Source: Planctomycetota bacterium
GTDB lineage: Bacteria > Planctomycetota > UBA1135 > UBA2386
DNA: 64,000 bases
NCBI GenBank assembly: GCA_965223545.1
Contig: OZ245006.1
Coordinates: forward strand, 4,288,001 to 4,352,000
Direction of reading: 5' to 3'
Position 1 is the stretch's first letter. Every line of letters starts with the position of its first letter. Positions 17,751 through 22,650 of this stretch are shown here, in pieces. Under the pieces are notes generated by a model, which worked only from the letters and a program-made list of their open reading frames with translations, did not search any database and had not been told where the DNA came from. A program made the position numbers and the translations under genes.

Positions 17751-18307
17751 CTGAGCTGCCGCTCTCGCGGCTGGTACAGGCCACCGTCCACGGGCTCGTA
17801 CACCCGACAGGCACTCATCTCGCCGCCGTACACGTGCAGCGTCGCCGCTGGTTCGGCGAACGGGTTGCGGATCACGTGGTACTCGAAGGGAGGGATCAGC
17901 GAGCCGGCTTCACCGACGCCGGCGGTGACGTCGCTCTCGTGCGCGAAGCGCACACTGCCGTCGTCGAGGCGCTCGGTCAGCGCATAGGACTCGACCACGA
18001 TCTGGCCGCGGTACACGCACTCGACGCACCACAGGCCGGCGTGGTCGTGGATGGTCGTGCCCTGGCCCGGTCCCCACGACATCACCACGACGGTGTAGCG
18101 ACCGAGCGGGTCGCGGTGCAGCAGACGGCGCGCGTAGCCGTCGGCCGCCGGCTCGACCCAGTGCTCGGGGATCGAGGCGCCGCTCTGCACGAGGTCTTGC
18201 AGTGCGATCTTGACCGCTTCGCACCGCGCCGGGTCGTCGTCGGCAACGACGGCGTCGTCGAGGGCGGCCACCAGGCGGTCGACCGCGGCATCGGAAGGAT
18301 CGTTCAT
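17741..18307 (-). CDS. Cysteine dioxygenase family cupin
   Basis: YARRLL, WGPGQGTTIHDH, EYHV, TLHVYG. Confidence 0.9.
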   Translation of the reverse strand: MNDPSDAAVDRLVAALDDAVVADDDPARCEAVKIALQDLVQSGASIPEHWVEPAADGYARRLLHRDPLGRYTVVVMSWGPGQGTTIHDHAGLWCVECVYRGQIVVESYALTERLDDGSVRFAHESDVTAGVGEAGSLIPPFEYHVIRNPFAEPAATLHVYGGEMSACRVYEPVDGGLYQPRERQLSYR

Positions 18308-18326
18308 CGCCGGATGATAACCCCGA

Positions 18327-20258
18327 TCAGTCGGTGACGGCGTCGTGCACGAAGCGGACGAACCGCGCCACGCTGCCGGCTCCGGCGAGCTTGTCCACGA
18401 TCTCCTCCGTCTGCGGATCGACGATGACGTAGATCGGCAGCGCGACGGTGCCGGTGAACTTCTTCTGTAGCTCGAGGATGCGCTGGTGGTGCGGGCTGCT
18501 CTCGGTGTCGGTGTGCAGCCGGGCCTCGACCACGTGCTGGAGCTCCGCGGAGACCTCCGGGAGCGGGAACACGGATTCCTCCATGCCCCGGCAGTTCACT
18601 CAAGTGACCCCGGTGAAGTTGAGCAGCAGCTTGCGGTTGGTGTCGATGGCGATCTGCCGCGCCTTGTCGTAGTCGTCGACGACGATCGTGTGCGCGGCCG
18701 AGTGCGCGGCCTGGTCGCCGGATTCGCCGCCGGTGCCTGCCGAGGCGATGCGATTGCTGTACGGCGGCACGATCGACGTCATGATGAAGTCCATCCTGTT
18801 GCCGGCGGCGCCGTAGGCGCAGTAGATCGCGAGCAACGCCGTCGCCAAAGCGCCGGTGAGGCGGCCACTGCCGATCGAGCCGACATCTTCCTTGAGCTTG
18901 ATGATGCCGAACAGCAACAGCGCCGCGATGCCGAAGATGCCGGCCCAGAGCGAGAGGAACAGCTCGCGCGACAGCCAGCCCCAGCCCCAGACCATGTCGA
19001 CGTTCGACAGGAACTTCAGCGCTGCCGCCAGCTCGACGAAGCCGAGGAACACCTTGAGCGTGTTCATCCACTCACCGCTGCGCGGCATCGTCTGCAGCTT
19101 GCTGGGCAGGAGCGAGAGCAGCACGAAGGGCAAGGCCATGGTCGCACCGAACACCGCCATGCCGAGCACCAGTCTGCCCAATCCGCCCGTCGCGCCGACG
19201 GCGAGCAGGTTGCCGACGAATGGTGCAGTGCAGGTGAACGAGGTGATCACCAGGGTGGCACCCATCAAGAACACGCCGGTGTAGCCGCCGGCGCCGCTGC
19301 TCTTGGCGGCGGCGTTCATCAAGAACGCCGGGGGCTGCAGGTTGATGACACCGAACAGCACCAGCGCGAAGACGAAGAACAGCGCGGCGATGACCAGGTT
19401 GGTGATCGGGTGCACCGCGAACGGAGCGATGGCCTGGCCGATCGTGACCGCGATCAACACGAACATCGCGACGATGCCCAGGCCGTAGGTCACCGCCAGC
19501 GGCAGTGGGCTGCGGCCGCTGTCCGCCGCCTGCTTGGTGAAGAAGGAGATCGTGATCGGGATCATCGGGTAGGTGCAGGGCATCGCGAGCGCGAACAGCC
19601 CTCCGCCGATGGCGAGCAGGATGAATGCCCACAGCGAGTCGTCGGTCCCCTCTTCGCCGGCTCTCTCGGATGTGGCTTCCTCGGATGCAGCTTCTGCGGC
19701 GTTTGCCTCGTTCTCGTCACCCTCGCTCGGCGCGTGTTCCGGGCGGACGGCACCCTCCTCGATGGCCAGCTCGACCGAGAACCTCTCGGTGGCTTCCGGA
19801 TCGCAGAACGACTCCGTGCACGCCATGTAGACCAGCTGGCCCTCGAGCTCGACGGCGCCCGGCGCGTGGCCCTCGGCGATCCGCATCTTCTGGCGCACGA
19901 CGAACTCGTCCTCGATCCAGAACGACTCGATGCCGAAGGACTCGTGCGGCTCGCCGAAAGGCACTTCTGCGGTGCCCTGGCGCGCGATGCCTTCGCGCTC
20001 GTCGACGGACAGCGTCGTCGGTGTGCCGGTGCTGTCTCCGGCCCCGTACAAATGCCAGCCGGGCACGATCTCGACCGCCAGCTCGACCGTGACGACCTCA
20101 CCCGGCCGCGCTGGATTGGGCGAGACGCTGGCCTCGGTGGTGATCTTGGGGCCCTCGGTCGGCAGGGCGAGCGGGTCGAACTCGCCCGGCACCTGGGCCG
20201 TGGTGCTGGCGGCGAGGCAGGCGACGGCGAGGGCAATCGCAGCGGATCGTGGCATCAT
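18327..20258 (-). CDS. dsbD: DsbD-family thiol:disulfide interchange protein, probable selenoprotein (UxxC)
   Basis: Signal peptide, DsbD-alpha domain (GWHLY...YMACTESFCDP), TM domain (PCTYPMIP...SFTCTAP). The thioredoxin domain continues in frame across TGA 18602-18600: NFTGVT-U-VNCRGMEE. Confidence 0.88.
18566..18589 (-). promoter_or_regulatory. Putative bacterial SECIS hairpin
   Basis: mRNA GGGGCAUGGA-GGAA-UCCGUGUUCC forms a 10-bp stem (3 G-U pairs) with a G-starting tetraloop 20 nt after the UGA. Confidence 0.7.
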
Positions 20259-20481: not shown

Positions 20482-22650
20482 ATGAGAGCGCTCCTCGTTC
20501 CCGTCTCGTGTGCCGTCAGCCTGCTGATCGCGCCGGTCTTCGCGCAGCAGAAACCGTTGTCTCGCGAGCAGGCCCTCGGCAGCGGCGAACGCGTGCGATG
20601 GTATTCGACGCCGGAGCGCGTGCGCTGGGCGCCCGATGGCGTGCACTACGCGATCCGCCGCGAGGGCAAGGTCGTCTGGGTGCATCCGGAGTCGGGAGCG
20701 GTGGTGTCGCCGCCGGCCGACGCGCGCCGCGGAGAGCGGGCGCCGCGCCCGCGCGGGCCGGGCGGTGCCGCCGGTGGTGACCCGCGCGTGAGGACGCGCG
20801 ACGGCGACCTGTGGTTCGGTCCCCCTGGCGCCGCCAACGACGGTGCCGCGAAGCGGCTGACCAAGGACGGGTTGGCCAAGGACATCGTCACGGTCAGCCC
20901 GAACGGCGAGTACGTCTCGTTCACCGCCGAGAACAACCTGTCGGTGGTGCGCGTGGAGGACGCCAGCGAGTGGAAGGTCACCGAGGACGGTGGGCCCAGC
21001 ATGTTCTGCGGCATCCTCGACTGGGTCTATCAAGAAGAGCTGTACGGCCGCTTCAACTATCGCGGTCACTGGTGGAGCCCGGACAGCAAGGCTGTGGCCT
21101 ACCTGCGGCTCGACGAGAAGGACGTCAAGACCTTCACCATCGTCGACTTCGTGCCGAAGCCTTCGCTCGACGAGGAGCGCTCGGTCGAGCCCGAGTTTCA
21201 GAAGTACCCCAAAGCGGGCGATGCCAACCCCACGGTGCGTCTGTTGGTGGCGCATCCCGAGACGCGCTCGCAGGTCGAGATCGACCTCTCCGACTATCCG
21301 GCTGACGTGCTCGTCGTGCGCGTGGGGTGGACGCCGGACTCCCGGCTGTTGTTCGCGGTGCAGGATCGCATCCAGACCTGGATGGACCTCAACGTCGCCG
21401 ATCCGCAGTCCGGCGCTTGGGTCAAGCTGATCCACGAGGCGTCCGAGACCTGGGTCAACCGACTGCCGTTCCCGGAGTGGTTGCCGGACGGGTCGTTCTT
21501 GTGGCTGAGCGAGCGCACCGGCTACCAGCACCTCTACCACTACGACGACAAGGGCGCCCTCGTGCGGCCGCTGACCGCCGGCGATTGGCAGGTCACCGAC
21601 TTGGTGCGGGTCGACGCCAGCGACGGAGTGCGGCGATGCTGGTTCACCGCTACCAAAGACGGCGCCATCGACAGCAATCTGTACTCGGTGGGGTTGGACG
21701 GCGGCGACATCGTGCGGTTGACCGAGGGCGAAGGCCGCCACTCGACCAGTCTCAACAAGGACGGTTCGTGGTTTCTGGACACCGTGTCGTCGATCGAGAC
21801 CCCGCCCGAGGTCCGCCTGTGCAAGGGCGACGGCTCGGGCTTCGTCGTGCTGGACAAGGCCGAGCCGCGCGCCGTCGAGACCCATCAGTACTACCCCAGG
21901 CAGCGGCTGACGATCCCTGCGCGCGACGGCTATCCGCTCGACGCGACGGTGATCCTCCCCCCGGGCCACGCCGACGGCAGTGGTCCGCACCCGATCTATC
22001 TGCCCACGTATTCCGGGCCCGATGCGCCGTCGGTGCGGAACGCGTTCTCGATCAACACCATGCACCAGTACCTGGCGCAGCAGGGTTGTGTGATCCTGCA
22101 GGTCAACGTGCGCAGCGCCAGCGGCCGCGGCCAGGCGCATACGGGCTTGGCCTACAAGCGGCTCGGTGTCTATGAGCTGCGCGATCTCGAAGACGCCGTT
22201 GCCTACGTCATCGAGAACCACGGTGGCGATCCCACCCGCGTGGCGATCGACGGCTGGAGCTACGGTGGGTTCATGGCGGCCTACGCGCTGACCCACAGCA
22301 AGGTGTTCTCTTTGGGGATCTCCGGCGCGGGAGTGCACGACTGGCAGCTCTACGACACGATCTACACCGAGCGCTACATGAGCACGCCGCAGCTCAACCC
22401 GGAGGGCTATCGCGAGACCTCGGTGATCGCCGGCGCCGCCAACCTGCACGGGCACTTGGTGCTGATGCACGGGGCCCGCGACGACAACGTTCACCTGCAG
22501 AACACCCTACGGCTGGTCTACGAGCTGCAGGCGGCGGGCCACGACAACTTCGAGCTGATGATCTACCCGCGCTCGCGGCACGGCGTGCGCGGCAGCCACC
22601 GCGGCAAGTTCGTGCTGCGCGCGATCGAGCGGCATTTGCTCGGCACCTGA
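20482..22650 (+). CDS. S9B dipeptidyl-peptidase IV family protease
   Basis: Signal peptide, DWVYQEEL, YPKAG, GWSYGG nucleophile, DDNVH, RHG. Confidence 0.95.
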   Translation: MRALLVPVSCAVSLLIAPVFAQQKPLSREQALGSGERVRWYSTPERVRWAPDGVHYAIRREGKVVWVHPESGAVVSPPADARRGERAPRPRGPGGAAGGDPRVRTRDGDLWFGPPGAANDGAAKRLTKDGLAKDIVTVSPNGEYVSFTAENNLSVVRVEDASEWKVTEDGGPSMFCGILDWVYQEELYGRFNYRGHWWSPDSKAVAYLRLDEKDVKTFTIVDFVPKPSLDEERSVEPEFQKYPKAGDANPTVRLLVAHPETRSQVEIDLSDYPADVLVVRVGWTPDSRLLFAVQDRIQTWMDLNVADPQSGAWVKLIHEASETWVNRLPFPEWLPDGSFLWLSERTGYQHLYHYDDKGALVRPLTAGDWQVTDLVRVDASDGVRRCWFTATKDGAIDSNLYSVGLDGGDIVRLTEGEGRHSTSLNKDGSWFLDTVSSIETPPEVRLCKGDGSGFVVLDKAEPRAVETHQYYPRQRLTIPARDGYPLDATVILPPGHADGSGPHPIYLPTYSGPDAPSVRNAFSINTMHQYLAQQGCVILQVNVRSASGRGQAHTGLAYKRLGVYELRDLEDAVAYVIENHGGDPTRVAIDGWSYGGFMAAYALTHSKVFSLGISGAGVHDWQLYDTIYTERYMSTPQLNPEGYRETSVIAGAANLHGHLVLMHGARDDNVHLQNTLRLVYELQAAGHDNFELMIYPRSRHGVRGSHRGKFVLRAIERHLLGT

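Follow-up and report, generated by a model that had tools for sequence, protein, structure and literature searches.

The gene under study, dsbD, occupies 18327..20258 on the reverse strand of the window, by which we mean the whole 64,000-nucleotide stretch of planctomycetotal DNA that was analysed, and its single-frame translation gives 643 amino acids when an internal TGA is read through. Between 20258 and 18327 this strand holds one frame of 643 codons whose sole internal stop is the TGA at codon 553. The first-pass annotation had claimed that two open reading frames of 627 amino acids (20483-18600) and 90 amino acids (18599-18327) are a single gene split by this codon, and we find that they do share a frame with nothing but the TGA at 18602-18600 between them. 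An upstream ATG opens the 627-residue frame, and the ATG at 20258 gives the 643-residue protein with U553; the length of the database gene call, 552 amino acids, is that expected if translation begins at 20258 and stops at the TGA. On the same strand, a cysteine dioxygenase type I gene (PF05995, 18307-17741) begins 20 nt past the dsbD stop; among 140 loci searched, this gene adjoins dsbD only in the genome's own loci, and the neighbourhood is not conserved. A divergent S9 dipeptidyl peptidase gene lies upstream of dsbD (20508-22650, forward strand) and a convergent radical SAM gene lies beyond the dioxygenase (17750-16380 region, forward strand), and we saw no link between either of them and dsbD.

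The predicted protein has the full three-domain layout that had been proposed for it, with DsbD_N, DsbD_TM and Thioredoxin_2 all matching over their Pfam cut-offs on the reverse strand. Following a likely signal peptide (20196..20258, residues 1-21, judged by eye from the sequence), the alpha domain (PF11412 DsbD_N; 19773..20114, residues 49-162; 34 bits, cut-off 25) carries Cys147 and Cys152, and the beta membrane domain (PF02683; 19002..19631, residues 210-419; 86.6 bits, cut-off 27.1) carries Cys228 and Cys343; these four cysteines are invariant in 20/20 aligned proteins. The gamma thioredoxin domain (18330..18707, residues 518-643), placed by Pfam and by a structural model, includes the match to Thioredoxin_2 (PF13098, residues 539-634) and holds U553-x-x-C556, with which all six redox positions are present. 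The TGA (18600..18602), read as selenocysteine (Sec) 553 from its alignment column, frame and contig base, stands in the context NFTGVT-TGA-VNC at the first, attacking position of the thioredoxin UxxC, and six residues before it lies Asn547 (18618..18620), which by offset corresponds to Asp455 of E. coli DsbD. The gamma-domain model has a pLDDT of 96.3, with the parts upstream and downstream of the TGA folding together, and its nearest solved folds are 3f9u and the DsbD-gamma structures 1uc7/1vrs. The full-length single-sequence model reached a pLDDT of only 44, and a crude hydropathy scan returned five strong segments where the DsbD class expects eight transmembrane segments. Within the genome (91% complete, 2 contigs), dsbD is the sole match to PF02683, and we found no further gene of the DsbD/CcdA kind. 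A scan of other genome contigs with the gamma domain alone gave only three distant loci.

An internal stop in a single genome might reflect a mistake in sequencing or assembly, or else a recent nonsense mutation, and it is from assembled contigs that the base at this site is known. It is identical in the contigs of two of four sequencing runs, the other two (X5 and X6) lacking coverage of the site. One of the agreeing runs, X1, is possibly the source of the analysed DNA itself; the other, X4, is a second sample from the same study whose contig, at a depth of 388, has no differences over 18200-18848. TGA occupies this position in 89 loci (the 87 described below and two variant loci) from 29 Planctomycetota families and 82 genera, and conservation on this scale excludes error or fresh mutation, to which we assign a negligible chance.

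The same codon recurs among close and distant relatives, the nearest homologues being labelled Planctomycetota at their source. A match to the protein was found in 35 of 41 near genomes, 27 of the 35 best matches hold one TGA, and within the organism's own family the best match has a TGA in 21/25 genomes. Across a phylum-wide sample, 215 of 401 genomes have a match, and among the best 150 of 260 matches 98 hold one TGA, in 98 genomes; those phylum matches that were flagged TGA and left unfetched could in part be terminal stops. This did occur in Verrucomicrobiota, where two of 25 matches flagged with one TGA proved to have terminal stops and Cys at the active site, and we rejected them. As a control, internal stops were present in 0/76 Bacteroidota matches (68 of 121 genomes with a match). 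Having fetched 80 further loci and removed duplicates, we aligned the gamma domains that are linked to a membrane domain and found that the codon-553 column holds 87 TGA and 45 TGC/TGT codons and encodes no other residue, which is the alternation that the first-pass annotation had expected of homologs. That annotation had also named what would count against it, namely a lack of relatives with TGA together with decay of the downstream frame; relatives with TGA are instead numerous and their downstream domain is intact. The frame 3' of the TGA measures 84-110 codons in 82/87 cases, and of the other five, three run off the locus, one contains N bases and one has 189 codons.

These comparisons bear on whether the TGA is a true stop, such that the product would be a 552-residue alpha-beta protein working in a CcdA-like manner with a separate thioredoxin, and the 3' frame either a remnant or a peptide with a start of its own. 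The database record matches this description: the residue just before the TGA column is the last one in 85 of the top 120 hits (80 when a strict pattern is applied) and in 109 of the top 150 representatives of 50% clusters, and the window gene is cut at the same place and has a GTG directly 3' of the TGA. Moreover, one relative (L137, from genome G372) has a frameshift between its beta domain and its TGA-bearing gamma domain, and one genome with a TGA-type dsbD (G250, locus L159; 90% complete, 140 contigs) yielded no selA, selB or selD, owing either to missing contigs or to recent loss. Termination at codon 553 would, however, sever the gamma fold after its first strands, in a family that conserves the downstream part in frame and length and retains the resolving Cys of UxxC in 87/87 TGA gamma domains; in the model of the window protein, the downstream part folds with the upstream part at high confidence. 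The internal codon is also invariably TGA and never TAA or TAG, whereas terminal stops differ between relatives, and a restart after the TGA is not conserved, because the next codon encodes Val in only 34/87 genes. We therefore regard a true stop as highly improbable and read the database record as the truncation by annotation pipelines that had been anticipated; the remaining full-length entries show C and none shows U, a letter that the tools may not keep.

The genome is equipped to decode UGA as selenocysteine. As the first-pass annotation had proposed checking, we searched for selA, selB, selC and selD and found selA, selB, selD and tRNA-Sec all over curated cut-offs, and SelD itself has an in-frame TGA at its known Sec site. 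Could read-through nevertheless insert Cys or Trp, with the help of a suppressor tRNA or an altered code? Some bacteria insert Cys at UGA by special tRNAs, and Cys is the alternative at the codon-553 column. Against this, TGA is the main stop in this genome, where it terminates 1466 of 1914 long genes, and the code has thus not been reassigned; among 64 tRNAs, the only one with a TCA anticodon is tRNA-Sec, which scores 74.2 bits on RF01852. Together with the TGA in SelD, these observations make decoding as another residue very unlikely. We conclude that the gene very probably encodes a DsbD-class selenoprotein with Sec in its gamma domain and that such proteins are widespread in Planctomycetota, the claim that the nucleophilic residue is Sec being supported by the TGA/Cys column, the Sec machinery and the intact downstream domain.

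The distribution of the Sec machinery is consistent with this prediction. Near genomes have selA in 41/41 and selB in 39/41 cases. Among the best 150 of 260 phylum matches, selA is present in 97 of the 98 genomes with a TGA-holding match and in 35 of the 43 whose listed matches are all stop-free (Fisher p 0.0003, overstated by kinship), against a background of 295/401 genomes in the phylum sample. When we built a FastTree phylogeny of 131 rows with the codon-553 site masked, it gave 11 changes between Sec and Cys, eight of them forced by well-supported branches; since the tree is unrooted, gain and loss of Sec are not told apart. Numerous relatives carry a second alpha domain or an additional thioredoxin. 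Those DsbDs with an extra N-terminal thioredoxin include one with TGA in both thioredoxins (L139), one with TGA in the N-terminal one only (L114) and two with TGA only in gamma (L161 and L162). In loci L086-L165, none of the alpha and beta cysteines was seen to be replaced by Sec.

Selenocysteine insertion would call for a signal in the message, and the first-pass annotation had pointed to a 10-bp stem at 18589-18566 whose GGAA loop lies 20 nt 3' of the UGA. This stem is present in the minimum free energy fold of a 63-nt stretch (z -2.21; 6/200 shuffles fold equally well), and fold energy is not significant for stretches of 45 nt (z -1.25) or 100 nt (z -0.52). The bSECIS model, as described in the part of PMC13188914 covered here, has a loop of 3-9 nt with G in position 1-2, a stem of 4-16 bp, a spacing of 16-37 nt and an energy of at most -7.5 kcal/mol; the window gene agrees with it, having a GGAA loop (18579-18576), 6-10 bp, 20 nt and -15 to -19 kcal/mol. 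Stem and loop thus stood up, and the register did not: at least eight of its ten pairs form in only 8/86 TGA genes (L035 was omitted from the hairpin comparison for an insertion), and it is therefore nearly private to the window gene. The stem that the family conserves lies 3-4 nt further 3', pairing positions +21-26 with +32-37 (relative to the T of TGA) around a 5-nt loop. From folding and family comparison, we place the candidate SECIS hairpin within the coding sequence at 18553..18595 on the reverse strand and, from covariation and pairing counts, the conserved upper stem at 18582-18577 with 18571-18566. The window gene itself favours the other upper register over that of the family (pair probability 0.86 versus 0.08), and its best fold joins the family lower stem to the upper stem of the 10-bp register.

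Comparison of TGA with Cys homologs, another check proposed at the outset, gave a partly favourable answer. The family upper stem is fully paired in 39/86 TGA genes and 2/45 Cys genes of equal GC content, and its covariation exceeds that of column shuffles in TGA genes (0/2000) and not in Cys genes (1546/2000). Where the +6 codon encodes Val, it is GTG in 18/20 TGA genes versus 3/18 Cys genes, a synonymous choice that favours the stem. By contrast with these differences, an apical G in the family register does not separate the two groups (59/86 TGA versus 30/45 Cys genes), and on eight independent tree pairs the link between hairpin and TGA runs in the same direction without reaching significance (median p 0.125). 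The lower stem shows no covariation (1980/2000 shuffles), and the Rfam and promoter scans returned nothing informative. In Cys genes too, the codons of the M-E-x-x-V-F-P segment go about half of the way towards forming the stem, which makes it partly their by-product, and a Bacteroidota Cys gene (L191) also folds the hairpin stem. Judged from these sequence patterns, the downstream hairpin likely has a SECIS function, its exact form aside.

By analogy with E. coli DsbD, we propose a route for electrons through the protein. SelB bound to the hairpin just 3' would direct decoding of UGA 553 as Sec; cytoplasmic thioredoxin would reduce the beta Cys pair, which would then reduce the gamma Se-S bond, allowing Sec553 to attack the alpha disulfide and alpha to reduce exported client proteins. 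An Se-S bond is harder to reduce than an S-S bond, and the beta-to-gamma step could thus be uphill. A selenol is ionised at neutral pH. If Sec553 were ionised all the time, gating would be lost and exchange would be faster, such that a Sec relay would trade gating of the E. coli type for speed. The part of PMC2631958 covered here gives the pKa of E. coli DsbD Cys461 as 10.5, set by Asp455 and Glu468, and describes the residue as quiet until alpha docks. The Glu at +7, corresponding to Glu468, is kept in 85/87 Sec gamma domains; the residue at -6, which corresponds to E. coli Asp455 by offset, is Asn in 60/87 Sec domains and Asp in 37/45 Cys domains. A Sec-specific adaptation from Asp to Asn is not supported, as the pattern follows one large clade and independent pairs give a median p of 1. 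If translation stopped at UGA, the product would consist of alpha and beta and lack gamma, and because recoding in E. coli is partial (30-40% and selenium-dependent, as given in the covered part of PMC4513850), this shorter product probably coexists with full-length DsbD.

The same genome offers candidate clients of such a relay in its TlpA-like, Prx-like and MsrA proteins; an active-site TGA and a signal-like N-terminus are features of many of these. Scans of codon usage and motifs for TGAs inside coding sequences led us to examine 14 further Sec candidates. Judged by eye, the N-terminus is signal-like in 11 of them, among which are three TlpA-like, one Prx-like and two MsrA-type proteins. 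The three TlpA/ResA-like proteins (L170, at G000:C1:6226245, L171 and L174) combine such N-termini with a TGA at the UxxC site. The family of L170 has TGA in 81/85 matches, in 45 of 80 genomes searched, and the active-site position was inspected in loci L195-L204. A thioredoxin/MsrA-like fusion of the VPGUxxT family (L166, at G000:C1:4588495 and 4588144) has two in-frame TGAs and a signal-like N-terminus and scores above the cut-off of NF041383; L167, an MsrA with GUFW, likewise has a signal-like N-terminus. Three candidates are without an NCBIfam match, namely an FG-GAP repeat protein with W-U-C (L168, at G000:C1:492917), a carboxypeptidase-regulatory-like repeat protein with UxxC (L176, at 3793782) and a thioredoxin-like protein with C-U (L178, at 2580553), and from their sequences these are possible uncatalogued exported selenoproteins. 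The others, L169, L172, L173, L175, L177 and L179, are of known kinds (DUF3179, AhpD-like, Trx_7, Prx-like, ArsC-like and Grx-like). In two relatives a TlpA-like gene adjoins dsbD, with TGA in both genes in one (L050, from G022) and Cys in both in the other (L040, from G007). The Sec-TlpA family is present in 30/43 genomes with Sec-DsbD, and because it is also present in 15/37 genomes with Cys-DsbD, the two are not locked together; co-dependence is unsupported by these counts.

We put forward, as a tentative proposal that we hold to be possible rather than probable, that in many Planctomycetota the entire reducing pathway of the envelope depends on selenium, from a single DsbD conduit with Sec in gamma to selenoprotein clients that are TlpA-like, Prx-like, MsrA or among several uncatalogued exported proteins. 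Selenium supply, through the choice between stopping and recoding at UGA 553, would then set the amount of full-length DsbD and hence the extracytoplasmic reducing power. Independently of this proposal, a DsbD with Sec in gamma would add a widespread selenoprotein to those in NCBIfam 20.0 and in the covered part of the 119-family list of 2026, and a systematic truncation of a housekeeping gene would be corrected across the phylum. Sec would be placed in a membrane electron conduit on its oxidising side, where E. coli DsbD relies on an unusually unreactive cysteine, and the switches between Sec and Cys, at least 11 in number and mostly in genomes that keep selA, would provide natural pairs in which to study the benefit of selenium to a disulfide relay.

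No theme is commoner among selenoproteins than Sec replacing Cys in the CxxC of a thioredoxin, and comparison with known systems and catalogues shows where the present protein departs from earlier examples. Thioredoxins with UxxC have been described, as has TsoB, a DsbD-like selenoprotein; Sec in a DsbD gamma domain is not found in the catalogues examined. No NCBIfam 20.0 model matches the full dsbD protein over cut-off. In the covered part of the 2026 inventory of 119 families (PMC13188914), 'DsbD' appears once, for TsoB, and word searches of the main texts of PMC12013277 (for DsbD), PMC5029168 and PMC9312934 (for Dsb) returned no DsbD entry. The literature that we searched, to which the original description of TsoB does not belong, contained no paper on a Sec-DsbD, and an earlier mention is possible. 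The selenoproteins named 'thiol:disulfide interchange protein' by Zhang 2006, a name also used for DsbD, share UxxC, the thioredoxin fold and the Pfam family PF13098, under which Table 1 of PMC13188914 lists them with UxxC. The three Zhang 2006 sequences given in the covered part of PMC1794560 are of about 190 amino acids, with the motif NPGUIGC and without membrane or alpha domains, unlike the window protein, which has 643 residues with both domains and no NPGUIGC. The 22 GOS 'Trx-like 2' selenoproteins are assigned to cd02953, and FTGxxUxxC is found in none of those 22 sequences; one of them, a single read, encodes part of a proteobacterial-type DsbD-gamma domain with U and lacks a membrane part (all from the covered part of PMC2398784). 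A DsbD membrane domain also underlies the selenoprotein TsoB (NF045694), a rhodanese/DsbD fusion-like protein whose UxxxxU motif contains two Sec, according to the listing of Haft and Tolstoy 2025 in PMC13188914. The window protein has instead a single UxxC and scores 123 bits against the TsoB model, over the membrane domain only, where the cut-off is 805, and none of 301 genomes holds a true TsoB over that 805-bit cut-off; positions of about 160-571 of the model match Cys-type membrane and thioredoxin DsbDs of Bacteroidota.

With E. coli DsbD (DipZ) and the Bacteroides-type DsbDs, the window protein has in common the alpha-beta-gamma order and the three redox pairs, its gamma fold gives TM-scores of about 0.7-0.8 against theirs, and it matches the Bacteroides gamma domain 3f9u (E 2e-21) with the motif FTGxxCxNC in common; it differs from them in having Sec at the position of the attacking Cys. 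Against the NCBIfam PRK00293 DsbD subfamily it scores 148.8 bits, below the threshold of 330, and we assign it to the wider DsbD class, whose alpha Cys pair, two-Cys beta membrane domain and CxxC-type gamma domain it possesses and whose transfer of electrons from thioredoxin to envelope clients it would, from its architecture, be expected to perform. ScsB, an alpha-beta-gamma electron hub, feeds TlpA and peroxiredoxin clients in the envelope and has Lys at +8 from its first beta Cys, as described in the covered part of PMC3322552; at that position the window protein has an invariant Thr236, and its alpha domain matches PF11412.
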